The notes beneath the pieces were generated by a model. It saw only the letters and a program-made list of their open reading frames with translations, searched no databases and was not told where the DNA came from. A program made the position numbers and the translations under genes. A DNA stretch of 22,948 nucleotides from an uncultured Planctomycetaceae bacterium (GTDB taxonomy: Bacteria > Planctomycetota > Planctomycetia > Pirellulales > Thermoguttaceae): NCBI GenBank assembly GCA_964438165.1, contig CAYTJV010000045.1, positions 1 to 22,948 on the forward strand. Reading direction: 5' to 3'. Positions 2,570-18,933 of this stretch are shown here, one piece after another (position 1 is the stretch's first letter; each line of letters opens with the position of its first letter).

Positions 2570-2938
2570 ATGATAAGGTGGAACGGAGCAGTGGCTAGCC
2601 CTCGTCTGCAGGTCGCCAGGCACGACGACGTTTGGGTGATACGTTTCTTGGACCGGCAGCTCGTCGGAAGCCTACCCGATGAGCTAGGCGGAGAATTGTA
2701 CGCCGTGGCGGCTCAGGAGGATTGCACGAAGCTCCTCTTGAGTTTCTCTGGGGTCGATTTCCTCGCCAGCGACATGCTCGGCAAGGTCGTGGTCCTGAAC
2801 AAGAAGATGAAACAGAAGGGGGGCAAGCTCACGTTGTGCAGACTCTGCCCCTACCTCCGTGAAATCTTGGCGACTACGAAGCTTGACCTGATCCTCGATG
2901 TCAAAGACACCGAAGCCGAAGGTCTCATGGTGTCTTGA
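2570..2938 (+). CDS. STAS-domain protein (anti-sigma-factor antagonist, SpoIIAA/RsbV-like)
   Basis: 122 aa with the STAS pattern: a hydrophobic beta-strand (VWVIRFLDRQLVGSL), …LLLSFSGVDFLASDMLGKVVVLNKKMKQKGGKLTLC, and a C-terminal …ILATTKLDLILDV. No partner RsbW-type kinase is adjacent. Confidence 0.7.
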   Translation: MIRWNGAVASPRLQVARHDDVWVIRFLDRQLVGSLPDELGGELYAVAAQEDCTKLLLSFSGVDFLASDMLGKVVVLNKKMKQKGGKLTLCRLCPYLREILATTKLDLILDVKDTEAEGLMVS

Positions 2939-2954
2939 CAGAGGAGATCGAAAC

Positions 2955-6040: not shown

Positions 6041-7942
6041 TCACTGGAAGAACCGGTGTCCGCAATTGTCGCAGAACTTCGATCCGCTGGGGATCTGACG
6101 GTGGCAGGTCGGGCAGACGACTTGCGGACCCTGTTGCACAGGGCCGGGGGCGCCGGCCTTCGCGGCCGCCACGTCGGCCAGGCGGTCCATGCTTTGCCCG
6201 GCCATGGCCTGCACATCGCGGGCGTGCTCGCGCTCCTTGGCCGCCGCGGCTCCGGCCACCCGCTCCATCGAGCCCATCGCCTTTTCCATGACCCGCTCCA
6301 GCCGGTCGGCTTCGGATTCCTTGCCGGCGAGGATTTTTTCGTACAGGGCCTTGACCTCGGCGCTTGCCCCGGCCTGGACCTGGGCCTTGGCACGCTCGGC
6401 AATCGCCGCCGCCACCTGCGGCGAGTCCTTGGCCACCAGGGCCAGGATCTGGTCCGGGCTAAGGTCCTTCATCACCTCGGTTTTCTTCAGATCCGCCGCC
6501 AGCCGAGTCTGCTCCGCCTCGGAAAGGGCATGAATCCGCTCCAGCTCCCGCTTCGCCTCACGGTCCTTGGCCTCTTGCTCGCGGGCGATCCGCTGGGACT
6601 CCTCTTCGTGATCCAGCGCGACCTTCTTCTCGCGCAACCGCATACCCAATTCTGCCTTGCGTTCGACGATACGCACGTCGGCCTCGGCCTCGGCGATTCG
6701 CTCGTCGCGGCGGCCCTCGGCAACGCGTCGCTCGTGTTGTACCTTCTCCCAGTCGGCCTCCTGCCGGGCACGGAGATCATCCCGCCCGTACCGGATGCGG
6801 TTCTCCAACTCCGCGTCGGAAAGGGCGTGACGCTGGCGGAGCACGGCCAAGTCGTGCTCCAGATCGAGCTTCTCCAGCATGTGCCTCCGCGCCACATCCG
6901 CGTCTTCCCGCTTCTCGGTGAAGGTGCGCCGCAGTTCCTCCATTTCGTCGGCGCGGACGAGGTCCTTGAGGCCCAGCTCGTGCTCGGTCTGACGCACGAA
7001 ATCTTCGAGCTCCTTCGCCGACGAGAACTGATTCATGCGGTCCGCGGTGAGCGTTTCGCGCAGCCGGCGGTTGAGCGCTGCCCGGCGATCGGCGTCGTCG
7101 GCCCCTGCCTCGGCGAGGCAGGTTTCGCCGCGGCGATCGCGAAGGGCTTCGTAGGATCGGCACGCCACGTGCAACGACCTGAGCGCCACAAGCTCCAGGC
7201 CGCTGCGCCGCAGGGCAGGCTCGATCCGCTGTCGCAGGTCGTTTTCCAGCGCGGCCTTCCACTGTGGATCGGCATTGAGATCGGCAAGCGATGCCTCTTG
7301 GACGCGGGCCCGAACCGTGTCGGCGCACGCGCTGCGCACCAGGTCGGCCACCGCGGCCTTGGGGAGGCTCTCCCGGCCGTGCACCAGGTTGGTGAAAAAG
7401 GAGAGCGGGTCGGCCACGCGCACCACGACCTCGGCCGTCAGGTCGGCAACGACCTCTTCCCGGGTGCGGAGGTCCCGGTACTCAAGCCCCAGCGCGGTGT
7501 CGCCCGCGTCGACGAGGATCGCGCTCGCCGGCGCGGCGAGGTTGAGTCGGGCCGGCAGCCGGGCCAGGTCATAGTTCCCGGCGGAGACCACCGCGGCCAG
7601 CGCGCCGCGTTGAAACACGAGGGCCTGCGTGCCCGGCTCGACCACCAGACGCCGCCGGAACAGCCCGCGAAGGTCGGCGGCTTCGATCCGGCGGGCGAAC
7701 TCGTCGCCGGAGCGACTCCAACGGTTCAGGGCGTCGACCGGCGCCGGCTCGTCGTCGCTGCGGCCCGCGGAAGCGCCGCAATGGCTACACAACTTGGCGT
7801 CGGCCTTCAAGGGCTTACCGCAGGCGGCACACGTGCCCTGGCTGGAGGGAATGGGTCGGCCGCAGTGCGGACAAAAGGCCGCGCCCCAGCGGACCTCCTT
7901 GCCGCAATCGAAATGGGGACACTGGCGGGAGAGAATGCCCAT
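6041..7942 (-). CDS. Flotillin/SPFH (band-7)-like protein with N-terminal and C-terminal zinc ribbons and a long Glu/Arg/Ala-rich coiled coil
   Basis: The start is taken at the internal Met (MGILSRQCPHFDCG…), because the upstream extension is Arg/Trp-rich junk. The N-terminus has three CxxC pairs. An SPFH-like core reads VVEPGTQALVFQRGALAAVV…AILVDAGDTALGLEYRDLRTREEVVADLTAEVVVRVADPLSFFTNLV. A flotillin-like EA-rich coiled coil follows, and the C-terminus has CPTCH…CDNCG. It is a paralogue of the protein at 17005-18933. Confidence 0.6.
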   Translation of the reverse strand: MGILSRQCPHFDCGKEVRWGAAFCPHCGRPIPSSQGTCAACGKPLKADAKLCSHCGASAGRSDDEPAPVDALNRWSRSGDEFARRIEAADLRGLFRRRLVVEPGTQALVFQRGALAAVVSAGNYDLARLPARLNLAAPASAILVDAGDTALGLEYRDLRTREEVVADLTAEVVVRVADPLSFFTNLVHGRESLPKAAVADLVRSACADTVRARVQEASLADLNADPQWKAALENDLRQRIEPALRRSGLELVALRSLHVACRSYEALRDRRGETCLAEAGADDADRRAALNRRLRETLTADRMNQFSSAKELEDFVRQTEHELGLKDLVRADEMEELRRTFTEKREDADVARRHMLEKLDLEHDLAVLRQRHALSDAELENRIRYGRDDLRARQEADWEKVQHERRVAEGRRDERIAEAEADVRIVERKAELGMRLREKKVALDHEEESQRIAREQEAKDREAKRELERIHALSEAEQTRLAADLKKTEVMKDLSPDQILALVAKDSPQVAAAIAERAKAQVQAGASAEVKALYEKILAGKESEADRLERVMEKAMGSMERVAGAAAAKEREHARDVQAMAGQSMDRLADVAAAKAGAPGPVQQGPQVVCPTCHRQIPSGSKFCDNCGHRFFQ

Positions 7943-7994
7943 AGTCTCGTGCCTTTCACTGAGAAACGCTGAAGGACGGCCTGGAAAGGCCGTC

Positions 7995-8837
7995 TTACAC
8001 GATTTCTTCCATCTTGTCGAGCACCACCCAGTTGTATGCCAAGGCCGTGACCGCAGCCGCAACCAGCAGCAGGGCCGCCCAACCACGTTCCAGTTGGAAG
8101 CCCATCATGGCGTATGCGGCCGCGGTCCCCACGAAGGCGAGTCCCAAGAGCAACCCCAAGTTCACCGCGTTCGACTGGCGAGCCAAGGCTCGATGAAGCC
8201 ACGGCGCCAGCGCCAAGGGGAGCAGCAGGACCAGCGCCAGCCACGCCACCAATCGTATCGGCCAGGCGTAACTGGTGACCCTCGCGGCCGCCTGCGATCG
8301 CCCGCGATCGTGTACGACCTCGGCAGTCAGGCTCACCGGTTGTGATGGCTCGCGGGTCTCAACCAAGATCGCCTCCAGGACGGCTTCATCCCGATCGGTT
8401 CGGGCGGCCAGGCTGCGCACGCGGCCGGCCACCAAGTACTCGCTGTCGAGCCGACTGCCGGCCGCCGTGACGGCCGCCTCGAGGGCCAGTTCGTCGTTTT
8501 CGATGCCCAGCTCGCGCTTCACGTTTTCCCAGAGGGATGCCGGACGGACCGCGTATCGACCCGCGCGATCGATCGCCCGGCGCACGGCTTCCGTCACCAC
8601 GCCCGTGGGATCGCTTTCGAACCGGGCCACGACCAACGAGGGCCTTCCCGACGGCGCCGCGGGCAATCGCTCGGCAAGCTGCCGGGCTGCGTCCTCGACC
8701 AGGGCTCGGCGGGCAGGATCGAGCGGCAACGGACGGGAGCGGACCAGCATCCACCCTTGCGCGATCACGACCAGCACCACACCCAGCCGGGCCAACCCCG
8801 TGCCGGCGCGAATCAGTCGGCCGAGCCATCTGAACAT
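7995..8837 (-). CDS. Hypothetical polytopic membrane protein (N-terminal signal-anchor helix, soluble middle domain, about three C-terminal TM helices)
   Basis: The start is taken at MFRWLGRL (GGGAG ribosome-binding site 8 nt upstream). The ORF-track N-terminal extension would overlap the upstream gene. Hydrophobic segments read LARLGVVLVVIAQGW and WPIRLVAWLALVLLLPLALAPWL…LGLLLGLAFVGTAAAYAMMGF…ALLLVAAAVTALAY. Confidence 0.55.
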   Translation of the reverse strand: MFRWLGRLIRAGTGLARLGVVLVVIAQGWMLVRSRPLPLDPARRALVEDAARQLAERLPAAPSGRPSLVVARFESDPTGVVTEAVRRAIDRAGRYAVRPASLWENVKRELGIENDELALEAAVTAAGSRLDSEYLVAGRVRSLAARTDRDEAVLEAILVETREPSQPVSLTAEVVHDRGRSQAAARVTSYAWPIRLVAWLALVLLLPLALAPWLHRALARQSNAVNLGLLLGLAFVGTAAAYAMMGFQLERGWAALLLVAAAVTALAYNWVVLDKMEEIV

Positions 8838-8850
8838 GCTGTATGCTCCC

Positions 8851-9441
8851 CTACGGCTCCCTGCGCATTTCTTCCTCGATCCGCCGCAGCCCGTCGGAGA
8901 TCTGTCCGTCGTCGCCGGAGGCCTCGTCGGCAGCGGCCTCGGTGACCATCTGGTGGGCCAGTTCGCCGAGCTTCCGCTCGTCGAGATCGCGGGCGTCGAA
9001 GAGACTGCCGGCACTGGTTTCCATGGCCACCGAGAGGACTTCTTCGAGGGCCTCCGACTTCTCCACGGCGCGGGCCATTTTGGCCTGCACGTCGGCCACT
9101 TGCTCCGGCGTGGCGCCGCGGAGGATCGAGTTGGTCATCGCCAAAATGCTCTTCAGAAAATCGCCGGTGGCGGCGACCTCGTCGCGGCGCACGCCGAGCG
9201 TCTCCAGTTGCAGCAAGTACCGCTCCCAGCGGCTGACGTGCTCGCGAGCGCGCAGGACCGCCGCGGCCAGTTGCTCGAATTGCTCGCGGTCGCCCAGGCG
9301 GAGGGCCTGCTTGCCCAGTTGCCAGTAGCGCTGCTGCACCTCGCGGGCACTGCGCATGAACCGCTGGATGCGCGTGATCCCCTGGCGGATTTGGATTTTC
9401 GCCTCCAGCTCCCGCTGCTGCCTCGATTTGAACAGTCCCAT
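8851..9441 (-). CDS. ESCRT-III/CHMP/PspA-superfamily-like coiled-coil protein
   Basis: 197 aa from the internal Met. The N-terminus MGLFKSRQQRELEAKIQ… resembles eukaryotic CHMP (MGLFGK…) and PspA (MGIFSRF…) N-termini. The protein is predicted all-helical and charged. The acidic C-terminus ends in an MIM-like stretch, SDGLRRIEEEMRR. The ORF-track upstream extension translates the intergenic hairpin and was rejected. Confidence 0.55.
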   Translation of the reverse strand: MGLFKSRQQRELEAKIQIRQGITRIQRFMRSAREVQQRYWQLGKQALRLGDREQFEQLAAAVLRAREHVSRWERYLLQLETLGVRRDEVAATGDFLKSILAMTNSILRGATPEQVADVQAKMARAVEKSEALEEVLSVAMETSAGSLFDARDLDERKLGELAHQMVTEAAADEASGDDGQISDGLRRIEEEMRREP

Positions 9442-9463
9442 GGTCCGGTCATCTCCGATCCTT

Positions 9464-9524
9464 AGTAGCAGGCACACTCCGTGTGCCGTCCGCCGGCTAC
9501 GGCACACGGAGTGTGCCTACTACT
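9464..9524. promoter_or_regulatory. Nested-palindrome hairpin. The arms AGTAGCAGGCACACTCCGTGTGCCGT / ACGGCACACGGAGTGTGCCTACTACT are separated by 9 nt, and each arm carries a 17-bp self-palindrome GGCACAC-NNN-GTGTGCC. It spans the stop codon of the AAA ATPase and the 5' leader of the ESCRT-III-like gene.
   Basis: Read directly from the sequence. The ORF track shows the mirrored peptide TAHGVCLLL on both strands. Confidence 0.5.
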
Positions 9525-10683
9525 TTGCGCACAACGACTCATACCGCTTCAAGGTCTCCGGCGGCGTATCGGGCCGCAGTTTGGCCAGCGCCGACTCGAA
9601 GTCGTCCCAGCGGAGCGGGCGCGTGGCAAGCTGGTACTTGCTCAGATCGGCGTCGCCGCGGGCGACCCGCTCGACGAGCTTCGGGTTGGCGTCGCCGATC
9701 ATCGTTTCCACGGCCACGGCGGCCAGGTGGGCGAGCTGCCGACCGCTCAGCCCCTCCGACCGCGCCACGAGGCTCTCCAAAGGGAAGCTCAGCGTGTGTC
9801 CCCTCCGCGTCAAATGAATTTCCAGGATTTGCCGTCGAGCAGCAGGATCGGGAAGGGGCACGTAAACGCGGCGTCCGAAACGGCTCAGCGCCGCCGGGTC
9901 CATGAGCCAGGGGGTGTTGGTCGCGCCCAGGGTGAACACGGGCGGGCCGTCTCCGCTGGCAGCGACCCCGCTCAGCTCGGCCAAGAGCGTGGAGAGGACC
10001 TGGCGCTCGGCAGCGCCGGAGGAAAGCTCTCGCGAAGCGAACAGGGCATCGAGCTCGTCGATGAAGACCAGCGAGGGGGCCCGCTGGCGCGCGACCGCGT
10101 AGAGCGTGGCAACCAGCCGGGCCGATTCGCCAAACCACTTGGAGAGCACGGCCGCCGCGCCGACGTTGAAGAACGTGGCGCCCAGCCCGCGGGAAGCGGC
10201 CGCCGCCAGGAGCGACTTGCCCGTCCCCGGCGGACCGAACAACAGGATGTTGCGAATCGGGTCGATCCGCACGCCGGGCGGTTTCTCGGCCACGGCCAGC
10301 CCAAAGGCCAACTGGATCTGCCGCTTCGTCTCCTCCAGGCCGCCGATGTCCTCCCATCCCACCGCGGCCCGCATGATGAGGGCCTCGACCTGGCCTCGGA
10401 GCTCCTGGTCGCCAGACGCGGGTTGTGGGATTGGGCCGGACGGCGGCGCAGGTCGTTGCTCCGAGAGGCGCTGAGCGAGGCTTTCCAGGTTGCGTACACG
10501 GGCCGTTCGCCGCGATCGTTCGGCGGGGCTGACCGCGTACTGGGCATACGCCCGTGCCAGCCCCGCCGCCTCGCGGTAGACGGAGGCGGCTCGTCCCGCC
10601 TCCCCGCCGGCGCGAAGCTCATCGGCCCGCCGGAGGGTCTTGCGAAGCGACTCGTCGATGCTGCGGCTCAAGTCAACGTTCAT
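9520..10683 (-). CDS. Vps4-like AAA+ ATPase (MIT-like N-terminal domain plus a meiotic-clade AAA domain)
   Basis: The start is taken at MNVDLSRS, with GAGAGGAG immediately upstream. The N-terminal ~75 aa form a three-helix MIT-like pattern (SIDESLRKTLRRADELRAGGEAGRAASVYREAAGLARAYAQYA…RSRRTARVRNLESLAQRL) that aligns by eye with the yeast and human Vps4 MIT domain. Walker A is GPPGTGKS and Walker B is LVFIDELD. The meiotic-clade signature ATNTPWLMDPAALSRFGRRVYVPLPD matches the Vps4 stretch ATNIPW.LD.A.RRRFE.RIYIPLPD. The C-terminal helix …DFESALAKLRPDTPPETLKRY is Vps4-like. Confidence 0.75.
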   Translation of the reverse strand: MNVDLSRSIDESLRKTLRRADELRAGGEAGRAASVYREAAGLARAYAQYAVSPAERSRRTARVRNLESLAQRLSEQRPAPPSGPIPQPASGDQELRGQVEALIMRAAVGWEDIGGLEETKRQIQLAFGLAVAEKPPGVRIDPIRNILLFGPPGTGKSLLAAAASRGLGATFFNVGAAAVLSKWFGESARLVATLYAVARQRAPSLVFIDELDALFASRELSSGAAERQVLSTLLAELSGVAASGDGPPVFTLGATNTPWLMDPAALSRFGRRVYVPLPDPAARRQILEIHLTRRGHTLSFPLESLVARSEGLSGRQLAHLAAVAVETMIGDANPKLVERVARGDADLSKYQLATRPLRWDDFESALAKLRPDTPPETLKRYESLCAK

Positions 10684-10694
10684 CGCACTCCTCT

Positions 10695-10773
10695 CGTAGC
10701 TTGGCTCTCCAGAGCCGAGCAAATACGGTCAACATCGCGGAAAAATCGCTCGGCTCTGGAGAGCCAAGCTACG
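10695..10773. promoter_or_regulatory. Nested-palindrome hairpin. The arms CGTAGCTTGGCTCTCCAGAGCCGAGC … GCTCGGCTCTGGAGAGCCAAGCTACG have a ~28-nt loop, and each arm contains the self-palindrome GGCTCT-CC-AGAGCC. It occupies the junction between the Snf7-like stop and the ATPase ribosome-binding site and start.
   Basis: Read directly from the sequence. It has the same two-level palindrome architecture as 9464-9524 and 755-817. Confidence 0.5.
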
Positions 10774-11380
10774 GAGAGAGGACCTTTTCGACGCGCTGGG
10801 CCGCCTCGGCAACGCCCTCCGGCCGGCCGGCTTCTTCGGCGGCGCGGGCGTCTTCCATGGCGGCGACGATGGCTGCCAGGTCGGCATCCGGCTCGGCCTG
10901 CTCCGCGGCCTGCACCGCACCGTCCAGGGAGCCCAGCAGGCTGGTGAACTTCTCCATCTCGAACTGGCCTGCCACGGAGGCCCGCTCGACGTAGGCCGTC
11001 AGCTCCTCGACCGACATTCGAGAGATCACCGAGCCGACTGTGAGCTGCTGCAAGAGCGACATATTCTCCTTGATCTGCAAGAGCCCGTCGACGATCCGCA
11101 GGTGCTTGTGGAAGAACGCGAGCTGCTGGCCTTTGGCGCGGGCGGCGCTATCGAGCTGCTTGATCTTCCGCGCCAGGGCCAGCCGCTGCCGCGAGCTCGG
11201 GTCGTCCTTGCCCTTCATGAATGACTCGTGTTTGCGGGCTTCCAGCTCGTCGGTCTCGCGGCTGACGCGCCGCTCCAACTGCTCCAGGCGGATCTTTTCG
11301 TGCTTCAGCTCGTCGATCGTGAGCCGGTCGATGCCCTTGGGGCTGCCCAGCAAATTCCGCAGACGGTCAAGCAGCAACAT
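10769..11380 (-). CDS. Snf7/ESCRT-III-like coiled-coil protein (first gene of the operon)
   Basis: 203 aa, with a GGAG ribosome-binding site 7 nt before the ATG. The protein is all-helical and charged, with a heptad-like …KIRLEQLERRVSRETDELEARKHESFMKGKDD…RQRLALARKIKQLDSAARAKGQQLAFFHKHLRIVDGLLQI… that resembles Snf7/CHMP4 core helices. The C-terminal tail is acidic. This is weaker than the call for the downstream MGLF protein. Confidence 0.45.
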   Translation of the reverse strand: MLLLDRLRNLLGSPKGIDRLTIDELKHEKIRLEQLERRVSRETDELEARKHESFMKGKDDPSSRQRLALARKIKQLDSAARAKGQQLAFFHKHLRIVDGLLQIKENMSLLQQLTVGSVISRMSVEELTAYVERASVAGQFEMEKFTSLLGSLDGAVQAAEQAEPDADLAAIVAAMEDARAAEEAGRPEGVAEAAQRVEKVLSP

Positions 11381-11400
11381 CGCAACGCTCCTGCATCCGC

Positions 11401-11433
11401 AAACTTCCGAAGTCTTCGAGACTTCGGAAGTTT
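11401..11433. repeat. Copy 2 of the 33-bp palindromic element (AAACTTCCGAAGTCTTCGAGACTTCGGAAGTTT), lying between the kinase stop (11436) and the Snf7-like start (11380)
   Basis: An exact core match to copy 3 and the reverse-complement orientation of copy 1. It is followed by TTTTG on the plus strand. Confidence 0.85.
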
Positions 11434-11435
11434 TG

Positions 11436-13721: not shown

Positions 13722-14301
13722 CGATCTGCTCCACCGCTTCACGGAGCTTGGCCAGCACGCGCGACTTGCCCACGTACACGTTGCCGACGGTCGTCTGCAA
13801 TTGTTCCGCAACCGTTTCCGGCGGGATCCCGTTGAGCACCGAGCGGCGGAAGGCCTCCCACGTGAGCGGCTGCACGGCCGCGCGCACCCGCTTCATGGCG
13901 ATCTCCAACACCCGGCGCCGATGCTCCTCCTCCACCCACGCCTCCACGGCCTGGCCGGAATCGGCAATCCCGGCGACGATCCGAACGTTGTCCGACCCGC
14001 CCGGCGCCGACGGCTTGCGGGCCTGTCCGTGGAAGTGGCGATACGCGCGGTGGCGGGCGACCGTGCTGAGCCAAGCGCGGAACGACTTGCTCGGATCGTA
14101 CTCGAACGGCTTGCGCGCGATGCGGTTCATCACGATCTGCATCACATCCTGCTGCAAGTCGAGGGCGTCCTGGTACGCCACGCCCATCCGCAACAGGACC
14201 CGCAACACCAGCGGCCCATACAACTCCACGAACTCCTGCCAACTCGCCTGGTCGCCGAGATTCCGCACGCGCAACAAGAGACTGGGCCGAGTTCTTTCCA
14301 C
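13714..14301 (-). CDS. ECF (group IV sigma-70) RNA polymerase sigma factor
   Basis: Region 2 and region 4 motifs read …RPSLLLRVRNLGDQASWQEFVELYGPLVLRVLLRMG…DLQQDVMQIVMNRI… and …VLEIAMKRVRAAVQPLTWEAFRRSVLNGIPPETVAEQLQTTVGNVYVGKSRVLAKLRE. The start is proposed at GTG 14301 (VERTRPSLL, with GGAAGG 8 nt upstream). An in-frame ATG at 14463 would add an Arg/Cys/Gly-rich leader and is less likely. The gene is translationally coupled to the kinase gene. Confidence 0.7.
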   Translation of the reverse strand: MERTRPSLLLRVRNLGDQASWQEFVELYGPLVLRVLLRMGVAYQDALDLQQDVMQIVMNRIARKPFEYDPSKSFRAWLSTVARHRAYRHFHGQARKPSAPGGSDNVRIVAGIADSGQAVEAWVEEEHRRRVLEIAMKRVRAAVQPLTWEAFRRSVLNGIPPETVAEQLQTTVGNVYVGKSRVLAKLREAVEQIDV

Positions 14302-14684
14302 CCCGGGCGCCTTCCAGCCGTTCGGGCGAGTTGCTCTCAGAGGCTGCCCGGAAACGGGGCCGGGCCCCCTACATCGTGTGCGAGGTCGAGCCCCGACACA
14401 CAACCGGGAGCCAGTCCCCGTTTCCGAACCGTCTCTCACTTCCTTCCCGCAAAGCGCGATCATTCTAACCGACCCAGACCTGTATTTGCAGGGGGTGCGT
14501 TCACCTGCCGCTTCCGCGTCGGCACGTTCCGAAGAGCCATGCAACGATGACTAGCCCGGGAAGTGAAGAATCTTACACGAAAAACCTGGGAATGGCGTGG
14601 GAGCGGACTGCCCCCAGCGGCCGAGGAGCGGCAAGACAGGGGGGAGGCGAGACGCCGCCAAGCCAGAAGCAAGGAATCGCTCGC

Positions 14685-14963
14685 TCAGCGCTTTGATTTG
14701 CCGCGAGAAGATCGATACTTTTCGCTTAGCGCCCGGCGATTGAGGAAATGTGCGAACCAGGGGAGCGGGCCGAAGGACTTGGCTCTTTCCTTGTGGGCCG
14801 CGCCGAACAAGGGAAATGCGACCGCACCCAAAGCCCCGGCCGCGGCGCCAATCAACAGGCCCGACACCGCGCCCATGCCCGCGCTCAGGTACAACAGGAT
14901 CAGCCATCCTCCCAGAAGGATCGATCCGATCGTGATGACCACCTTGTTGTCGCTTTCGTCCAT
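14685..14963 (-). CDS. Small glycine-zipper membrane protein
   Basis: 92 aa, with GAGGAG 6 nt before the ATG, overlapping the end of the upstream kinase gene. Two TM segments are rich in GxxxG/A (ITIGSILLGGWLILLYLSAGMGAVSGLLIGAAAGALGAVAFPLFGAA), followed by a basic tail. It resembles the YeaQ/YmgE/transglycosylase-associated small-protein style, but the family is uncertain. Confidence 0.5.
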   Translation of the reverse strand: MDESDNKVVITIGSILLGGWLILLYLSAGMGAVSGLLIGAAAGALGAVAFPLFGAAHKERAKSFGPLPWFAHFLNRRALSEKYRSSRGKSKR

Positions 14964-14987
14964 CGCTTGGTCTCCTCGCGGTCCTGT

Positions 14988-16886
14988 TTACGATTGCAGG
15001 ATCGCGCCCACCGCAATCCCACCGATCGCGCCGGCGACCAGCCCGCCGATCGGGCCTGCCAGCGCGCCGACAGCCAGACCGAGCACCGCGCCGGCAACCG
15101 CGCCGCCCACAACGCCGGCGAACATCGAGACGCGTCGGGCGGTCTGTTCATCCCGCTTCAGCAGGTCGCCGTCGCGCGCCGCAAGATACTCGCCCCGGAG
15201 TGCCCGATCGTCCGGACGAGCCGTAACCAGTTCCCGCAGCGATGGACCGACTGTCGCTCGCGCCTCCGCCGCGTGCGGGCCGTTGGGATAGGAACTCAAG
15301 TAGCTCCGGTAACCCTCTGGGCTCGGGGCCTGGTGGACCGCGTTCCAGGCCAATTCTTGCTGGTGGGCCTCGTGTTTGTCAAGCTGCTGGAGGAGTTTTT
15401 CCACGGAAGGATCGTGGGGAGCCAACTGGCGGAGCCGCTCTGCCTTGGGCCGCAGTCCCTCGTAATTCTTGCTGGCGATCTGGTCCTTGATCTCCTGGCG
15501 CAACTGGGCGATCGCCTGCATCGACGTCTGCGCTTGACCGAGCACATTCTTAGCGCGGTCGAGCAAATCAGCGAGTTCGGGGTTGTGGAAGGCGTAGGGA
15601 ATCTCCTCCAGCAAGTTGACGGCCTCGGCGAACTTTCCCGCCTTCATCCATTCGTTCGCCTGCCGTATGGCCTCGTCGCGTTTCTTCTGCGCGGCGGCGT
15701 ACTCCTGTTGTACGACCGGGAGCTCCATTTCGGCCCATTTGGAAAGCCCGCGCTGGTTAGGGTCCACCGACAAGGTCATGGCGCGCAGGGTGTTGATCGC
15801 CTCCTGATACCGCGACTCGGAACGCAGAGTGGCCACCCGATCGGCAACGGCCTGGGCCTCATCGTCTGCGGCCTTCTTGCTCTGGTCGGGGGCCTCGACC
15901 GCGGGCGCTTGCTTCAACCGCGAATCCAACCCCGCAAGCGCCTGCTCGAATTCCGCGGCGGTCTGATACCGCTTCTCCCGGTCCTTGTGCAGGGCCTTGG
16001 CCAACACGGTCCGCAAGACCTCGGGGACCTCGCTCTCCCGGAAAAAACGCGGATTCTGCCCCGACAGCGCAAACCACAGCGTCCCCCCCATCCCGTAAAT
16101 GTCCGCCCGTTGGTCCACCTTCGACGCATCCACCTCCTGCTCCGGCGCCCCGTACCCAAGCGTCAACAACTGCGCCCCGGCCAGGGTGGCCCCCTCCTGC
16201 TGCGTGTTCACCTGCCGCGCCAGGCCGAAATCCGCCAGCTTCGGCTCCCAGTCCTCGTTGAAAAGGATGTTCGCCGGCTTGATGTCCCGGTGGATCACCC
16301 CACGCTTGTGCGCGTACTTCACCGCGCTGCAGAGCTTGATTCCCAGCCCCACGGTCTTGGCTAGGTCCAGCGCCCCCTTCGCCTTCACCAGCTCGTCCAG
16401 GTCCAGCGGCGGGTTGGGCGCCTCCGCAGGCCAATCGGCGCGCCCACCGGCCTCCGGACCCGCCACGTATTCCATGGCGATGTAGGGCCCCTCCGAGTCC
16501 TCGTCCATCGCGTAGACCTGCACGATGTGGAAGTGGGCTAACGATCCCACCGACTGGGCCTCAGTGTGGAACCGCTGCAAGAGCCGGCTATCCTCGGCGA
16601 ACTGTTCCGACAAGCGCTTCAAGGCCACCCAGCGATTCAGGCGGACATCCTGGGCCAGGTTCACCGTGCCCATCCCGCCCTTGCCGATCAGGTGGACCAC
16701 GCGATACTTGTCGCCGGTGCCGCCGCGCCGCTCGCCCTGGTCACCGGCGGCCGTGCTGCCGACGCCGCCATCGGCGAACGTCGCCCCGTACACGTTTTCC
16801 GGACCCGACGGCGGTTTGGCCGGCCGGGGCTGCGATCCGCTCTGGGGCGATTGTTGGCCGGCGTCGCTGATGGTGCGATCGTCCAT
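14988..16886 (-). CDS. Hanks-type Ser/Thr protein kinase with a C-terminal helical (TPR-like/coiled-coil) region and a glycine-zipper TM tail
   Basis: GGAGG ribosome-binding site. Kinase motifs are GKGGMGTV, VALKRL, HRDIKPANILF, DFGLAR and GYGAPEQ. The C-terminus is …MFAGVVGGAVAGAVLGLAVGALAGPIGGLVAGAIGGIAVGAILQS. Confidence 0.8.
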   Translation of the reverse strand: MDDRTISDAGQQSPQSGSQPRPAKPPSGPENVYGATFADGGVGSTAAGDQGERRGGTGDKYRVVHLIGKGGMGTVNLAQDVRLNRWVALKRLSEQFAEDSRLLQRFHTEAQSVGSLAHFHIVQVYAMDEDSEGPYIAMEYVAGPEAGGRADWPAEAPNPPLDLDELVKAKGALDLAKTVGLGIKLCSAVKYAHKRGVIHRDIKPANILFNEDWEPKLADFGLARQVNTQQEGATLAGAQLLTLGYGAPEQEVDASKVDQRADIYGMGGTLWFALSGQNPRFFRESEVPEVLRTVLAKALHKDREKRYQTAAEFEQALAGLDSRLKQAPAVEAPDQSKKAADDEAQAVADRVATLRSESRYQEAINTLRAMTLSVDPNQRGLSKWAEMELPVVQQEYAAAQKKRDEAIRQANEWMKAGKFAEAVNLLEEIPYAFHNPELADLLDRAKNVLGQAQTSMQAIAQLRQEIKDQIASKNYEGLRPKAERLRQLAPHDPSVEKLLQQLDKHEAHQQELAWNAVHQAPSPEGYRSYLSSYPNGPHAAEARATVGPSLRELVTARPDDRALRGEYLAARDGDLLKRDEQTARRVSMFAGVVGGAVAGAVLGLAVGALAGPIGGLVAGAIGGIAVGAILQS

Positions 16887-16924
16887 GGGGATTCCTCCAC
16901 TGGTTCTGTACTACGAACCTCAAA

Positions 16925-17002
16925 TTCAGGGTTCGGGGTTCGGGGGTCGGGATTCCCGTTCAAGCGTCTCCTCCGAGTCCTGAACCCTGAACCCCGAACC
17001 CT
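16925..17002. promoter_or_regulatory. Imperfect inverted repeat built from tandem G-tract heptamers (AGGGTTCGGGGTTCGGGGGTCGGGATTC … GAGTCCTGAACCCTGAACCCCGAACCCT). It lies between the SPFH-paralogue stop and the kinase start and is a candidate terminator, attenuator or G-quadruplex element.
   Basis: Read directly from the sequence. There are four G-runs of 3-5 on one arm and the complementary C-runs on the other, with an ~18-nt loop. Confidence 0.4.
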
Positions 17003-17004
17003 TT

Positions 17005-18933
17005 CTAGGGTTGTCCTTCCTGCGGATCCGGGGGCTGTCCCTGCGGCGCCACGTTGATGACCTGCTGCGGGCCGGTCACCTTGGCAAGCTCCTTGGCCGA
17101 CTGGTACTGTCCCCACTGCTTCACCGCTTCCTGGAGCAACGCGGTGTACTGCTCGTTGTTGCTGGCGTACGATTTGGACAGCTCGTCGCGGAATTTCTCC
17201 TGCATTTGGAACTGCTCCCGCTGGTTTCCGGCCTGCACGCTGGCGGCGTAGGCGGCGGCCAGTTGCGGATTCTCGGCCAGGGCGATGGTGAGCACGGAAT
17301 CGGGAGGGAGGTTGGCGTATTCCCTCAACATGCGGATGCGGCGATTGAGCTGCGACTCCTGCTGTTCGTCTTGCAGCCTCAACGCCTGGCCGTGCATCTC
17401 CATGGCCAACCTCATCTTTTCCTTCTGCAACTCGAACCGGGCGTGTTCCGCCGCCGTGTTCATCTCGATCTCGTGCCGGCGGGCGGCGCCGTCCATTTCC
17501 AGTCGGCGCTGCAATTGCTCCGCGCGCAACAGGTCCTTGTCGCGATCCGTTTCGCGGGCCTCCTTGATCACATGCCGGTCCAGCGCGGCCTGATCCGAAG
17601 CCATCGACATCTCGGTCTCGGTTTCCACGTGAGAGACGTCCTGGGCCTCCGCGCTGTCCATGCGCCGCTGTTCGCGGCCGATCTCCAATTCTTCTTTGCG
17701 GTCGACGAGTTGCTCGCGCTGCAAGGCATTGTCGCCGCGGCGCTTGAGAAGCTCTTCGTAACGCGGACAGATGAAGCGAAACGCCGACACCCGCTCGATC
17801 TTTAGGCCGTACGTGTTGAACGTCGTCGACATGATCCTCTGAAGGTCGCCGGCCACGCGCTCGCGAACCTCGACGGTGTTGTACAAGCGCTCGGCTTTCT
17901 CGTTGCGCACGGCCTCGATCACCGCAGCGAGGAACTCCATGCGGATTTGCTCGTAGAATTCGGCCACGGTGACGGGGACGGGCTTGGCCAGGCTGGGGCC
18001 TTTGGCCCCGGCGCCAAAGAGAACCCGGCCGACCAACTCCATGGGAAATCCAAACAGCTTCCCCACCAGCCCGCCGTGTTTGGGTTGCTGGTCTTCCGCC
18101 ATCCCCAGGGACTTCTTCTGATCCGGGCTGAGCTCCCGCAATTTCCGGTCGATGAACATCTGCAGCAGCCTCACGGGGTCGGCGCAGCGGAGAACGACCT
18201 GGGCCGTGGCCGCCCCGAGGAGGTTGTCGGCCGTGCGGATGCTCGAGCCCCGCAGCGCCGCCTCGACTTCAAAGGCCCATTTGGCCTCGTGCTCTTCGGA
18301 AAGCGTTTCAATGTCGGGGAGGAAGAACGTGGTTGCCAACGGCCCCTGTGCGACCGTGCAGAGGAACACCGGACGCATTTCCTTACCTGCCTCCAGGGCC
18401 AGCCCGAAGCTCTTGCCCAGCCCGCGCCGCGATACGTCGTACTCCCCCGCCTGCAGTACCGCCGTGCGGTGAATCTGGGACACCATGAACGTACACGTCC
18501 CGGGTTGGACCGCCAACTTCTTGATGTTCGGCAAGCTCCCATCGGGCAACTGGTCGGTGACCGTAATCAGGACCAAAGGGAGCTTCGCCATCTGCTCTTT
18601 GGAGGCCCTGGCCCGATTAAAGATGGCCCTCGCGTCAACCTCCTCGATCGGGTTATTCTGCGCGTGGAGCTCGGCGTGACAGTACATGCAGTAGCGGGCC
18701 TCGAACGTCATCTTCTGGCACTTGGGGCATTGGATCCGCTTCGATGCCGCACGGCTCGGCTTGGGATCGGTCACATCGGTGAGTGCTCCACCGCCGGACA
18801 CCGCGGAGAGCGAACCGGCGGTGATGGAATCGCGCTCTAGCCGGGCCGAAGGCAGCTCGGCCAGACAGTGCGTGCAGTACCGGGCCTCGGCCGTCATCTT
18901 GTTGCACGAAGGGCACTTGATTTGCTTGGGCAT
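17005..18933 (-). CDS. Flotillin/SPFH-like protein with an N-terminal double zinc ribbon and a long coiled coil (paralogue of 6041-7942)
   Basis: AAGGA ribosome-binding site. Two CxxC…CxxC units (MPKQIKCPSCNK…CTHC; CPKCQK…CMYC). The SPFH-like core reads …VQPGTCTFMVSQIHRTAVLQAGEYDV…VVLRCADPVRLLQMFIDRKLRELS… and has the same architecture as 6041-7942. A long E/R/Q-rich coiled coil follows. Confidence 0.6.
   Translation of the reverse strand: MPKQIKCPSCNKMTAEARYCTHCLAELPSARLERDSITAGSLSAVSGGGALTDVTDPKPSRAASKRIQCPKCQKMTFEARYCMYCHAELHAQNNPIEEVDARAIFNRARASKEQMAKLPLVLITVTDQLPDGSLPNIKKLAVQPGTCTFMVSQIHRTAVLQAGEYDVSRRGLGKSFGLALEAGKEMRPVFLCTVAQGPLATTFFLPDIETLSEEHEAKWAFEVEAALRGSSIRTADNLLGAATAQVVLRCADPVRLLQMFIDRKLRELSPDQKKSLGMAEDQQPKHGGLVGKLFGFPMELVGRVLFGAGAKGPSLAKPVPVTVAEFYEQIRMEFLAAVIEAVRNEKAERLYNTVEVRERVAGDLQRIMSTTFNTYGLKIERVSAFRFICPRYEELLKRRGDNALQREQLVDRKEELEIGREQRRMDSAEAQDVSHVETETEMSMASDQAALDRHVIKEARETDRDKDLLRAEQLQRRLEMDGAARRHEIEMNTAAEHARFELQKEKMRLAMEMHGQALRLQDEQQESQLNRRIRMLREYANLPPDSVLTIALAENPQLAAAYAASVQAGNQREQFQMQEKFRDELSKSYASNNEQYTALLQEAVKQWGQYQSAKELAKVTGPQQVINVAPQGQPPDPQEGQP

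Follow-up and report, generated by a model that had tools for sequence, protein, structure and literature searches.

A zinc-ribbon SPFH protein encoded beside Snf7-like and Vps4/CdvC-like genes in a planctomycete, and its distant paralogue in a separate conserved module

RESULTS

Domain architecture of P1 and P2

The window analysed here, the whole 22,948-nt stretch of contig CAYTJV010000045.1 from an uncultured Planctomycetaceae bacterium, encodes two proteins, P1 (6041..7942, 633 aa) and P2 (17005..18933, 642 aa), whose boundaries are the same in the independent gene caller of the protein collection. Both genes, like all other features described below, lie on the minus strand. A first-pass annotation had claimed these two reading frames and had ascribed to each product tandem N-terminal zinc ribbons (ZnR), an SPFH core and a long helical tail, with an additional C-terminal ribbon in the first protein. 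Motif, Pfam, AF2 and Foldseek analyses bore out this architecture.

P1 begins at 7942, a start supported by the 'MGxFSDKC' consensus of its orthologues and by the collection gene call, and has the order ZnR-ZnR-SPFH-long helical region-ZnR. The tandem N-terminal Cys4 ribbons (7778..7921, aa 8-27 and 38-55), in which the first half of each motif pair is CxxC or Cx4C, were matched by Pfam DZR (aa 12-56, 46.1 bits), and their cysteines were nearly invariant in an alignment of 32 P1 family sequences. The SPFH/Band 7 core (7157..7711, ~aa 78-262) was detected by Band_7 (PF01145) over aa 100-254 at 37.8 bits (Pfam cut-off 23.6) and, as a marginal pass, by Band_7_1 (25.4 bits, cut-off 24), which we take to be the model for the YdjI family. 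This core had a pLDDT of ~85-93 in the AF2 model, whose top Foldseek matches in the PDB were stomatin, PHB, HflK/C and flotillin (E ~2e-9). The following E/R/A-rich, coiled-coil-like region (6155..7156, aa 262-596) was predicted to form helices at 262-297, 331-464 and 529-596; D+E account for 23%, K+R for 20% and A for 18% of residues 265-600. Two motifs in this region, 'RQTEHELG' (aa ~317-324) and 'LSPDQILALVAKDSPQVAAAIAERAKAQ' (aa ~494-521), correspond to nearly invariant columns of the family alignment. The C-terminal Cys4 ribbon (6062..6115, aa 610-627) lies in the best stretch (aa 610-630) of the Pfam Zn_Ribbon_1 match to P1 (58.6 bits) and was present in 108 of 119 full-length family representatives. 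Because the maximum hydropathy in a 19-residue Kyte-Doolittle window was only 1.25, P1 was judged to have no TM segment.

P2 has the order ZnR-ZnR-divergent SPFH-long helical region; a search by motif found no C-terminal Cys4 ribbon and a hydropathy search no TM segment. Its N-terminal ribbons (18679..18915, aa 7-23 and 69-85; weak Pfam DZR match, E 3e-4) are separated by a linker that is disordered in the AF2 model (pLDDT <50). Among the 10 members of the P2 family alignment the second ribbon is conserved, and four have the first. The SPFH-like core (17767..18642, ~aa 98-389), delineated by Foldseek and core-only hhalign, contains an insertion (~aa 255-320) that is variable in the family. The Band_7 search was positive for P1 and not significant for P2 (11.6 bits, E 0.28), yet the weak P2 match fell at the expected position (aa 329-414). 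The AF2 model of P2 (pTM 0.56) matched HflK/C, flotillin, prohibitin, erlin and stomatin structures at probability 1.0, with the best scores for HflK/C (9cz2, E 2.9e-6) and flotillin (9bq2, E 5.2e-6). The SPFH identity of P2 therefore rests on profile-profile and predicted-fold evidence rather than on a Pfam match. The helical region (17077..17766, aa 390-619; predicted helices 390-454 and 463-540, plus shorter ones) carries the motif 'LPPDSVLTIALAENPQLAAAYAASVQA', which is conserved in the P2 family and aligns with its P1 counterpart.

Some family members bear automatic source names such as 'RPABC4/Spt4' and 'ribosomal protein L40E'. These names, and the fact that the strongest Pfam scores come from the zinc ribbons, would fit P1 and P2 being nucleic-acid- or transcription-related factors with a spurious SPFH-like similarity. 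However, the names come from the ribbon alone, and the ribbons make up <10% of each protein. A zinc-ribbon transcription factor identity is contradicted by the Band_7 match, which passes the gathering score in P1, and by Foldseek, which paired each model with dozens of SPFH structures at probability 1.0; we consider it extremely improbable.

Homology and distribution of the two families

P1 and P2 are ~20% identical. BLASTP between them produced colinear HSPs (best E 9e-7), and hhalign aligned the two family profiles at 99.7% probability over 434 colinear columns (E 2.4e-26). The SPFH core alone scored 96.1% (E 3.2e-9), while two controls, the reversed sequence (E 0.19) and SPFH against coil (E 0.38), were not significant, indicating that the similarity is real and goes beyond coiled-coil composition. 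The homology proposed in the first-pass annotation is thus upheld: judged from these alignments, P1 and P2 are true, though distant, paralogues of one SPFH-superfamily family.

The P1 family is large and without annotation (627 representatives at E<=1e-30) and is bacterial, occurring in Planctomycetota, Chloroflexota, Verrucomicrobiota and Eisenbacteria. P2-type proteins form a small clade of 10 hits in the protein collection search, whereas P1-type clusters number in the hundreds. Chloroflexota-type loci have, immediately upstream of the ZnR-SPFH gene, a second SPFH paralogue that bears a TM segment. One member of the P1-P2 family, P0034, is a natural ZnR-SPFH-ZnR-FHA fusion, and the family is therefore tied to phospho-threonine signalling.

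The gene string containing P1

P1 is part of a same-strand string with the order sigma–STK–coil–AAA–Snf7–TM–P1–ZnR_DUF4384 and gaps of 10-78 bp. The string begins with an ECF-type sigma factor (13714-14544; Pfam Sigma70_r2; the true start is probably later) and a Ser/Thr kinase with an internal Cys4 ribbon at aa 446 (11436-13811; Pfam Pkinase). They are followed by a 203-aa coiled-coil protein (10769..11380) directly upstream of the AAA ATPase gene, a placement that is conserved; orthologues were found in L002, L007, L008, L012, L017, L023, L024 and L030. No relation of this protein to Snf7 was detectable by hhalign (probability 1.6%) and no meaningful PDB sequence match was found, the sole match below E 0.01 (STI-1, 4gcn, E 7e-4) being taken as spurious.

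The 387-aa ATPase (9520..10683) is a single-domain classical AAA protein with Vps4/CdvC-like architecture (Pfam AAA 110 bits, weak Vps4_C). The NCBIfam CdvC profile covered it over positions 22-364 of 370 at 149 bits, below its cut-off; in the PDB its best match was Cdc48/p97 D2, above Vps4 (163 bits), and an MIT domain was not demonstrable. The adjacent gene encodes a 196-aa Snf7/CHMP-like protein (8851..9441), which scored 20.7 bits against Pfam Snf7, below the cut-off of 27.3. Four of its five orthologues matched Pfam Snf7 (best E 1.3e-8), and the orthologue profile matched CHMP3 (3frt) end to end (E 1.5e-5), so that by sequence this gene truly belongs to the ESCRT-III family.

Immediately upstream of P1 lies the gene of a 281-aa protein with one N-terminal and three C-terminal TM segments by hydropathy (7995..8840), a candidate membrane anchor for P1. 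Its orthologues are directly upstream of the P1 orthologue in L007, L017 and L023; in L001 two kinase genes intervene. The gene 12 bp downstream of P1 encodes a 445-aa protein with zinc ribbons and DUF4384 (4691..6028; Pfam DUF4384 37.8 bits), of which clear orthologues were found in L007 and L017 and a protein of like architecture ~6 kb downstream in L025. Altogether, five proteins of the island carry Cys4 ribbons.

Neighbourhoods of P1-family genes

The string order recurs in other planctomycetes (L007 and L017), and its first four genes, sigma–STK–coil–AAA, are kept in the same order in L007, L017, L023 and L024. AAA, coil and/or Snf7 genes were also found near P1 orthologues in L002 and L030 (Anaerolineae/Chloroflexota-type), L008 (Sedimentisphaerales) and L026 (Eisenbacteria). 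Among the 21 loci that could be assessed over 10 kb around the P1-family gene, ~9-10, from several phyla, had a Snf7-like and/or coil gene adjacent to that of a Vps4-like AAA ATPase. Because about half of the assessable loci (L010, L014-L016, L019, L025, L027 and L028) had neither a Snf7-like nor a Vps4-like gene within 10 kb, the ESCRT link is frequent but not obligatory, and a restriction of the ZnR-SPFH architecture to Vps4-like neighbourhoods, which the first-pass annotation had suggested checking, did not hold. Other neighbours were more constant: Ser/Thr kinases occurred in nearly all usable loci and FGE-sulfatase-domain proteins in most, and caspase, CHAT, vWA, WD40/TPR and FHA genes recurred.

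The P2 module

P2 is flanked downstream by a 632-aa Ser/Thr kinase (14988..16886; Pfam Pkinase 127 bits), whose C-terminal part contains a TM segment (aa 586-631), and upstream by a ZnR-FHA protein (18944-20770; Pfam FHA 39.3 bits, DZR), beyond which lies a caspase–FGE-sulfatase-domain protein (20767-22623; Peptidase_C14 61 bits, FGE-sulfatase 101.6 bits). The two placements described initially, P1 in a same-strand string with Snf7-like and Vps4/CdvC-like AAA genes and P2 next to FHA and kinase genes, were therefore both correct. L004 and L005 each have the kinase orthologue in this position and keep FHA–P2–kinase synteny, which in L004 extends to FGE–FHA–P2–kinase.

The same annotation had viewed the two proteins as a regulated scaffold pair, which would correspond to co-assembly of P1 and P2 into one hetero-oligomeric cage like those of HflK/HflC, PHB1/PHB2, flotillin-1/2 or erlin-1/2. 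Paralogue pairs are the rule among solved SPFH cages, the P1 and P2 genes lie 9 kb apart on the same strand in one island, two SPFH paralogues stand side by side in Chloroflexota-type loci, and the two families share the helical motif that is most conserved near the C-terminus. In addition, in L004 (Anammoximicrobium) the P2 orthologue has a 796-aa P1-like gene two genes upstream. However, L004 is the only examined P1-family locus with a P2-type gene, and no P1-type gene was found within 10 kb of the P2 locus L005. The P2 family is also tiny, the conserved synteny blocks of the two paralogues are distinct, and the two proteins, only ~20% identical, differ in their C-termini and in the insertion of P2. 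Co-assembly is thus improbable, and P1 and P2 belong to separate conserved modules.

The constancy of kinases and FGE-sulfatase-domain proteins, the recurrence of the other genes and the caspase–FGE fusion beside FHA–P2 raise a different alternative, in which the SPFH proteins would be the superstructure-forming scaffold or effector of a kinase/FHA/caspase/FGE-sulfatase ('FGS')/vWA conflict system, anti-invader or programmed-death-like. Snf7 and AAA would then be optional accessories, which might for instance limit or execute membrane damage, rather than core partners. In multicellular or complex bacteria, planctomycetes among them, such systems have been described as using FGS, caspase and 'Band7-like' multimerising domains as scaffolds or effectors (Kaur et al. 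2020, PMC7159879). On the other hand, PADLOC models matched only generic domains (kinase, AAA, caspase) and neither P1 nor P2; the window has no STAND, MoxR or GTPase NTPases, the types that define described conflict systems, and no mobile-element or phage hallmark by Pfam; and the viral structure matches were generic SPFH proteins. We regard this explanation as possible but unlikely. For the kinase, FGE-sulfatase, caspase and vWA neighbours, a role in conflict or signalling is no less fitting than one in housekeeping membrane repair.

DISCUSSION

A working model for P1 and P2

The reading that we put forward, with confidence about evenly balanced, is that P1 and P2 are soluble ZnR-SPFH paralogues, P1 serving as a platform for the Snf7/AAA module and P2 as the scaffold of a separate signalling module. 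All mechanistic steps of this model are drawn from analogy and gene context. Like other SPFH proteins, each paralogue would use its helical region to oligomerise as a ring or cage at the cytoplasmic face of the membrane, to which a membrane partner would recruit it. For P1 this partner may be the 4-TM protein encoded just upstream, a position that the TM-containing SPFH paralogue occupies in Chloroflexota-type loci; for P2 it may be the adjoining TM-anchored kinase. P1 could then position or nucleate the adjacent Snf7-type protein, whose filament would be remodelled by the Vps4/CdvC-like ATPase. P2 may be a lineage-specific duplicate that scaffolds the caspase–FGE-sulfatase, ZnR-FHA and Ser/Thr kinase module. 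Ser/Thr phosphorylation, read by FHA domains, would control both modules, and the Cys4 ribbons of the five island proteins may act as protein–protein docking modules.

Comparison with known SPFH and ESCRT-III systems

HflK/C, flotillin-1/2, prohibitin-1/2, stomatin, erlin-1/2 and QmcA share with P1 and P2 an SPFH α/β core followed by long helices, which are predicted in P1 and P2, and paralogue pairing is common among these cages. An N-terminal TM helix or hairpin holds the canonical proteins in the membrane; in the P1/P2 family its place is taken by the tandem Cys4 zinc ribbons. Neither P1 nor P2 matched Pfam Flot, and unlike in canonical systems no partner protease or NfeD gene is encoded nearby.

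The combination was at first not recognised from described systems, but SPFH proteins with zinc fingers beside ESCRT-III-superfamily genes are already known. Operons of PspA with Band-7/flotillin proteins recurrently link an ESCRT-III-superfamily gene to a Band-7 protein, sometimes with an AAA+ ATPase; what has been reported there is bacterial Vps4-like ATPases with Snf7 displaced rather than a Snf7 + AAA + ZnR-SPFH string (Ravi et al. 2024, PMC11237479). In archaea, a protein with SPFH, coiled-coil and zinc-ribbon parts is encoded in the 'Meth_adaptin' ESCRT-III/Vps4 loci; a cage- or lid-like role was proposed for it with YdjI–PspA as a parallel, and other archaeal ESCRT loci have been described as linked to kinases and FHA (Makarova et al. 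2024, PMC10936438). By description, this protein has the same three-part architecture and the same Vps4 and ESCRT-III neighbourhood as P1. It is archaeal whereas the P1/P2 family is bacterial, and Pfam detected in the window none of the adaptin-appendage-like, GOLD and ProX-like genes that define the Meth_adaptin loci.

In Bacillus subtilis, the pspA-ydjGHI (samGHI) operon encodes the ESCRT-III superfamily member PspA and the SPFH protein YdjI (SamI), which is soluble and carries a C-terminal zinc finger; YdjI requires the membrane proteins YdjG/H for recruitment, and PspA foci require YdjI (Scholz et al. 2021, PMC8581546; see also Baur et al. 2026, bioRxiv 10.64898/2026.02.06.704340). As described, YdjI resembles P1 in that it is an SPFH protein, is soluble, lacks a membrane anchor and has a zinc finger near its C-terminus, and its operon resembles the P1 string in placing membrane-protein and ESCRT-III-superfamily genes alongside the SPFH gene. 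YdjI is ~320 aa long, about half the length of P1 and P2, which in addition carry two N-terminal ribbons and helical regions of 230 (P2) to ~330 (P1) residues. P2 differs further in having neither a C-terminal ribbon nor an ESCRT-III neighbour. The putative partner of P1 is of the Snf7/CHMP type, with an AAA ATPase, instead of PspA, and the P1 operon adds an ECF sigma factor and Ser/Thr kinases. The scheme proposed for P1 would thus parallel both the YdjG/H -> YdjI -> PspA pathway and the Meth_adaptin ESCRT loci, and the P1 locus is a bacterial variant of the SPFH–ESCRT-III partnerships described in Bacillus and archaea.

P1 and P2 are homologous SPFH proteins lacking a membrane anchor

P1, a 633-residue protein encoded at 6041-7942 on the minus strand, carries Cys4 zinc ribbons at aa 8-27, 38-55 and 610-627 (Pfam Zn_Ribbon_1, 58.6 bits; DZR, 46.1 bits) and passes the Band_7 profile that defines the SPFH superfamily (PF01145; 37.8 bits, E = 2.6e-9, aa 100-254, gathering score 23.6). 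Its match to Band_7_1 (PF13421; 25.4 bits vs a cut-off of 24) was confined to positions 107-188 of the 211-position profile. An AlphaFold2 model computed with 32 homologues predicted the SPFH core with a pLDDT of ~85-93, followed by helices at 262-297, 331-464 and 529-596. When this model was compared with the PDB by Foldseek, stomatin, prohibitin, HflK/C and flotillin were matched at probability 1.0 (best E = 2e-9), and the top 49 matches to the predicted model were all SPFH proteins or vault shoulder domains. The helical extension beyond the core (aa 262-596 in the model) is highly charged and Ala-rich (residues 265-600: D+E 23%, K+R 20%, A 18%). The ribbon motifs, the Band_7 match and the predicted helices thus bear out the architecture assigned to P1 in the first-pass annotation, namely N-terminal ribbons, an SPFH core, a long helical region and a C-terminal ribbon.

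P2, a 642-residue protein encoded at 17005-18933 on the minus strand, contains two Cys4 ribbons (aa 7-23 and 69-85) and lacks the C-terminal one. It failed the Band_7 profile (11.6 bits, E = 0.28, cut-off 23.6), although the alignment fell at the expected position (aa 329-414), and gave no match to Band_7_1, so that the Band_7 search proposed earlier recovered P1 and missed P2. The model of P2 (pTM 0.56) matched PDB structures of HflK/C, flotillin, prohibitin, erlin and stomatin at probability 1.0 (best E = 2.9e-6). Its core is broken by a variable, low-confidence insertion at aa ~255-320 and is followed in the AlphaFold2 model by a helical extension (aa 390-619), again with a charged and Ala-rich composition.

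BLASTP of P1 against P2 gave colinear HSPs in the ribbon and SPFH-start region (best E = 9e-7). Profiles of the two families aligned by hhalign over 434 colinear columns (99.7% probability, E = 2.4e-26), and the SPFH cores alone still aligned at 96.1% (E = 3.2e-9), where a reversed sequence and an SPFH-versus-coil comparison gave E = 0.19 and 0.38, respectively. The core-only alignment and these reversed and mismatched controls rule out similarity arising from coiled-coil composition alone. The most strongly conserved helical motif near the C-terminus is common to both proteins (LSPDQILALVAKDSPQVAAA in P1, LPPDSVLTIALAENPQLAAA in P2). P2 is therefore placed in the SPFH superfamily via its core alignment to the P1-family profile and its predicted fold. 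Both an SPFH match and mutual homology were found, as the first-pass annotation had supposed, and we regard the identity and homology claims for P1 and P2 as near certain.

SPFH proteins typically, but not universally, carry an N-terminal TM helix or hairpin as an anchor. No TM segment was found in P1 or P2, whose maximum 19-residue hydropathies were 1.25 and 1.24 (threshold 1.6); the protein encoded upstream of P1 reaches 2.36. Because neither has a hydrophobic segment, P1 and P2 are classed as anchor-less; they are homologous SPFH proteins that each combine zinc ribbons with long helices. The term flotillin-like applies to their shape only, since Pfam Flot (flotillin C-terminal/EA-repeat) gave no match in either protein at E<=0.1 and Foldseek alignments of the two models to flotillin (9l3g, 9bq2), which extended over 440-520 columns, had very high rmsd. 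NCBIfam profiles returned nothing informative for P1 or P2, and among BFVD viral structures only generic SPFH proteins were matched.

Two tightly spaced gene strings carry P1 and P2

The window has a GC content of ~58-70%, and most of its real genes lie on the minus strand; gene boundaries are those recorded by an independent gene caller for the 22,948-bp NCBI contig. On this strand, one string encodes a caspase plus FGE-sulfatase-domain protein (20767-22623; Peptidase_C14 61 bits, FGE-sulfatase 101.6 bits), a Zn-ribbon plus FHA protein (18944-20770), P2, and a Ser/Thr kinase with a C-terminal TM segment (14988-16886). The caspase/FGE fusion gene overlaps the start of the Zn-ribbon–FHA gene by 4 bp. 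About 440 bp away begins a second string, which encodes an ECF-type sigma factor (13714-14544), a Ser/Thr kinase with an internal Cys4 ribbon at aa 446 (11436-13811), the 203-aa coiled-coil protein coil203 (10769-11380), a single-domain AAA ATPase (9520-10683), an Snf7-like protein (8851-9441), a 281-aa four-TM protein (7995-8840), P1, and a Zn-ribbon plus DUF4384 protein (4691-6028). Intergenic gaps in this second string are 10-78 bp, and the genes of the caspase–FHA–P2–kinase string are packed just as closely. A promoter/terminator scan of the window yielded sites no more numerous than in shuffled sequence, which leaves spacing and synteny as the sole basis for the operon boundaries. A G+C-rich hairpin of nine pairs with a T-run after it (10748-10769, minus strand) separates the stop codon of coil203 from the AAA gene. 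It may act as an attenuator or may have arisen by chance, as terminator-like sites are not more frequent than in shuffled sequence.

Several other features of the window were observed. Residues 445-790 of the ribbon-bearing kinase (11436-13811), after its Cys4 ribbon, form a conserved domain without a Pfam match, and in two other loci (L010, 6898-7818; L012, 849-1778) tblastn matched only this region, without the kinase domain. On the plus strand, a small STAS-domain gene (2570-2938) is flanked by two long ORFs, 686-2371 (561 aa) and 2898-4688 (596 aa), whose products have no Pfam match and a single hydrophobic segment each, at the N-terminus.

Cys4 ribbons occur in five proteins of the island, namely the Zn-ribbon–DUF4384 protein, P1, the kinase at 11436-13811, P2 and the Zn-ribbon–FHA protein; in related loci they are also fused to FGE-sulfatase domains and to kinases. 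Their presence in five island proteins suggests a shared adaptor or docking module rather than a nucleic-acid binder. That P1 and P2 themselves act as zinc-ribbon nucleic-acid or transcription factors is a reading we rejected as hardly credible, given that the ribbons make up <10% of each protein and that the evidence for SPFH is strong.

An Snf7-like protein and an AAA ATPase are encoded beside P1

The Snf7-like protein starts with 'MGLFKSR…' and ends with an acidic stretch and a helical tail. Searched alone, it scored 20.7 bits against Pfam Snf7, under the cut-off of 27.3. Four of its five orthologues matched Snf7 (best E = 1.3e-8), and the orthologue profile aligned end to end with human CHMP3 (3frt; E = 1.5e-5). 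Via these orthologues, the P1 neighbour at 8851-9441 can be assigned as an Snf7-family ESCRT-III subunit.

The AAA ATPase has a single classical AAA domain (110 bits) and a Vps4_C match under the cut-off (E = 0.0037). The CdvC model covered it nearly in full, but at 149 bits vs a cut-off of 650, and in the PDB search Cdc48/p97 D2 outscored Vps4. Its N-terminal 100 residues gave no Pfam MIT match and a single, non-significant PDB match to 2mpk (E = 0.084), which we take to be the MIT domain of chitin synthase 1. With CdvC under its cut-off, Cdc48 D2 ahead of Vps4 and no MIT domain demonstrated, the ATPase is Vps4/CdvC-like by architecture and context only.

The coil203 profile had no meaningful match in the PDB and aligned with the Snf7-like profile at 1.6% probability (hhalign); its classification as an ESCRT-III protein is unsupported by sequence. 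The conserved module of coil203, AAA and Snf7/CHMP3-like genes spans 8851-11380 (minus strand) in the window and is also present in L002, L007, L008, L012, L017, L024, L026 and L030, loci from elsewhere that carry P1- or P2-family genes. Its hosts are Planctomycetota, Chloroflexota-type and Eisenbacteria MAGs. According to a review from 2025, a Vps4-like ATPase 'appears absent in bacteria' (PMC7619361), and this module therefore merits a separate look.

Gene neighbourhoods of the P1 and P2 families

We compared 30 fetched loci using tblastn and precomputed gene calls. The full window order sigma–kinase–coil203–AAA–Snf7-like–TM–P1 was found in two other planctomycetes (L007 and L017), with a Zn-ribbon–DUF4384 gene directly after the P1 orthologue in L017 and beyond a gap of ~3 kb in L007. 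Coil203 and AAA genes occur in a Planctomycetaceae locus (L012), coil203, AAA and Snf7-like genes in Sedimentisphaerales (L008), and the same three with a second AAA gene in Anaerolineae (L002). An unplaced NCBI MAG with the gene block of L002 (L030) has a coil203-like gene and an AAA gene at 43% identity. In Eisenbacteria (L026), AAA (43%) and Snf7-like (39%) genes are divergent from the SPFH gene, with an FHA gene downstream, and in one metagenomic locus (L024) the module is divergent and 8 kb off. A weaker AAA match only was seen in another Planctomycetota locus (L009), and coil203-like sequence only in two metagenomes (L023, L029). No AAA/coil/Snf7 module was found within 10 kb in L010, L014, L015, L016, L019, L021, L025, L027 or L028, and the sequence of L001 is cut short just upstream. 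The AAA module thus accompanies P1-type genes in only ~9-10 of the 21 assessable loci, and zinc-ribbon SPFH proteins are not confined to neighbourhoods with the Vps4-like gene. The linkage of P1 to the module far exceeds chance for a rare bacterial gene pair and is no strict rule.

In the Chloroflexota-type loci L002, L027, L028 and L030, and partly in L029, two other genes directly precede the zinc-ribbon SPFH gene (L002, 6816-9968; L030, 7000-9977; L027, 6855-9936; L028, 6869-9924; L029, 4788-6404). The first encodes a conserved soluble protein of ~450 aa and the second an SPFH paralogue (480-566 aa) in which a two-TM hairpin lies at aa ~320-390; in L030 this paralogue scored 35 bits against Band_7 and aligned with the P1 profile at E = 4.9e-10 (hhalign). 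These loci thus hold adjacent SPFH pairs, one member anchored and the other zinc-ribbon-capped. Since a four-TM protein takes the corresponding place in the window, a membrane protein immediately upstream is a conserved theme. In L029, a 590-aa protein encoded directly downstream of the zinc-ribbon SPFH gene (8935-10707) resembles coil203 in its N-terminal region, with 34% identity over 133 aa. No AAA ATPase gene lies near it, and the tie between the coiled-coil protein and the SPFH family may therefore not depend on the ATPase.

The gene order FHA–P2–kinase is retained around the P2 orthologues of L004 and L005; in L004 a Zn-ribbon–FGE-sulfatase gene, a 796-aa P1-like gene and a gene for a 1,059-aa AAA protein come before it. 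P1 and P2 each lie in their own conserved gene block. That the two form one hetero-oligomeric cage, for which SPFH proteins offer precedent, would agree with the P1-like gene in L004 and with the adjacent pairs in Chloroflexota, but P2 is rare and the two proteins belong to different synteny blocks, which makes such a joint cage improbable.

Ser/Thr kinases were found near P1-family genes in almost every locus, and FGE-sulfatase-domain proteins in most, often fused to a zinc ribbon, kinase or caspase. FHA, caspase/CHAT, vWA, WD40/TPR and Zn-ribbon–DUF4384 genes are also recurrent neighbours. Caspase/FGE, Zn-ribbon/FGE and kinase/FGE fusions resembling the gene at 20767-22623 flank P1-family genes in most loci. 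Domains of this kind (FGE-sulfatase, caspase, vWA and 'Band7-like' multimerizing domains) have been described in conflict systems of complex bacteria including planctomycetes (PMC7159879), and the P1 family might accordingly be a scaffold or effector component of an immunity or apoptosis-like system, in which case SPFH cages and ESCRT-like modules would join the repertoire of bacterial apoptosis-like immunity. We consider this rather unlikely: the NTPases that define such systems are absent from the window, and PADLOC was uninformative for P1 and P2, returning only generic kinase, AAA and caspase matches among the neighbours.

Size and distribution of the family

A word-indexed search recovered 36 relatives of P1 and 10 of P2, and a later word-indexed search with a 79-sequence profile added nothing to them. 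An exhaustive HMMER search with the P1-family profile returned 2,158 cluster representatives at E<=1e-10, of which 627 reached E<=1e-30; for most of the best 150, the match covered the full length. A C-terminal Cys4 ribbon is present in 108 of the 119 full-length representatives listed, and 62 combine two N-terminal ribbons with one C-terminal ribbon by strict motif; a sizeable family is thus characterized by the triple-ribbon SPFH architecture. The relatives carry source names that are incorrect or say little ('hypothetical', 'zinc ribbon domain-containing protein', 'RPABC4/Spt4', 'ribosomal protein L40E').

Family members occur in Planctomycetota (Pirellulaceae, Planctomycetaceae, Brocadiaceae, Phycisphaerae, Sedimentisphaerales, Tepidisphaerales), Verrucomicrobiota, Chloroflexota/Anaerolineae and Candidatus Eisenbacteria, and in two further bins whose labels, Mollicutes and Cyanobium, are not trustworthy. 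None of the 17 genome loci found was archaeal. P2-type proteins form a small clade whose sole named member is from Candidatus Anammoximicrobium. P0034, a metagenomic P1 homologue, is a natural ZnR-ZnR-SPFH-ZnR fusion with a C-terminal FHA domain (27.7 bits vs a cut-off of 20.7), which is independent, domain-fusion evidence that the family works with phospho-threonine signalling.

A proposed mechanism

SPFH scaffolds and ESCRT-III polymers are among the most widespread membrane-organizing systems; to our knowledge, how prokaryotic ESCRT-III is targeted is largely unknown. Cages have been solved for HflK/C, flotillin, prohibitin, stomatin and erlin. By analogy with these and with YdjI of Bacillus, P1 and P2 would each form a ring or cage on the cytoplasmic side of the membrane, oligomerizing through the helical region, P1 being brought to the membrane by the four-TM protein encoded upstream and P2, plausibly, by the TM-anchored kinase. 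P1 would then serve as a platform for an Snf7-type polymer that the AAA ATPase remodels, and P2 would scaffold the caspase–FGE, FHA and kinase module, with the Cys4 ribbons as docking modules shared among the five island proteins. Control of these modules by kinase and FHA proteins is suggested by the kinases as constant neighbours and by the FHA fusion in P0034. The recruiter role of P1 is an inference by analogy. To the overall picture, in which anchor-less SPFH platforms serve Snf7/AAA in the case of P1 and the caspase/FHA/kinase module in the case of P2, we give about an even chance.

A more far-reaching version, which we put forward tentatively, is that the locus encodes a genuine phospho-regulated ESCRT-like machine present in several phyla (Planctomycetota, Chloroflexota, Eisenbacteria), in which a zinc-ribbon SPFH cage would act as the upstream recruiter, YdjI-like or functionally ESCRT-0/I-like, of an Snf7-type filament recycled by a Vps4/CdvC-like ATPase, and which would reflect an ancient cross-domain SPFH–ESCRT-III partnership. 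The partnership is seen likewise in archaeal Meth_adaptin loci and in YdjI–PspA of Bacillus. The existence of such a machine would run against the opinion that bacteria lack Vps4-driven ESCRT-III systems.

The family defined by this locus is bacterial, large and unannotated, and comprises hundreds of clusters at 50% identity. If the proposed mechanism is true, it would offer a tractable bacterial model of SPFH-dependent ESCRT-III recruitment, extend the YdjI–PspA paradigm to Snf7-type systems, and add to the evidence for Vps4-like/ESCRT-III modules in bacteria, which recent reviews deem absent (PMC7619361).

Comparison with known systems

The first-pass annotation was right that the window encodes homologous zinc-ribbon SPFH proteins. 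It did not recognize their combination with ESCRT-like genes from described systems, but YdjI/PspA, the archaeal Meth_adaptin loci (PMC10936438) and PspA–Band-7 operons are close precedents. Bacillus subtilis YdjI, a soluble SPFH protein with a C-terminal zinc finger, depends on the membrane proteins YdjG/H, and PspA foci depend in turn on YdjI (PMC8581546; bioRxiv 10.64898/2026.02.06.704340). YdjI/SamI is thus a precedent for an anchor-less SPFH protein (PMC8581546), and P1 and P2 likewise have no TM segment. P1 shares with it the further set of a C-terminal zinc finger and of membrane-protein and ESCRT-III-superfamily partners, an Snf7-type partner standing in place of PspA, whereas P2 shares only the absence of a TM segment.

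Makarova et al. drew an explicit parallel to YdjI–PspA for the archaeal ESCRT SPFH protein (PMC10936438). In Meth_adaptin loci, an SPFH, coiled-coil and Zn-ribbon protein lies beside Vps4 and ESCRT-III, and the architecture and neighbours of P1 agree with this published description; the adaptin-appendage-like (IG + TBP), GOLD and ProX-like genes of those loci have no counterpart among the window proteins by Pfam. Ravi et al. (2024) described PspA–Band-7/flotillin operons, as well as the transfer of Vps4-like ATPases to bacteria, though with Snf7 displaced (PMC11237479). Set beside these systems, what appears to be new is that the family is bacterial and large, that an N-terminal double ribbon replaces the membrane anchor, that it is coupled to Snf7-type, not PspA-type, ESCRT-III and an AAA ATPase in at least three bacterial phyla, that its links with kinase, FHA, FGE-sulfatase and caspase genes are pervasive, and that it includes the insertion-bearing P2 subfamily.
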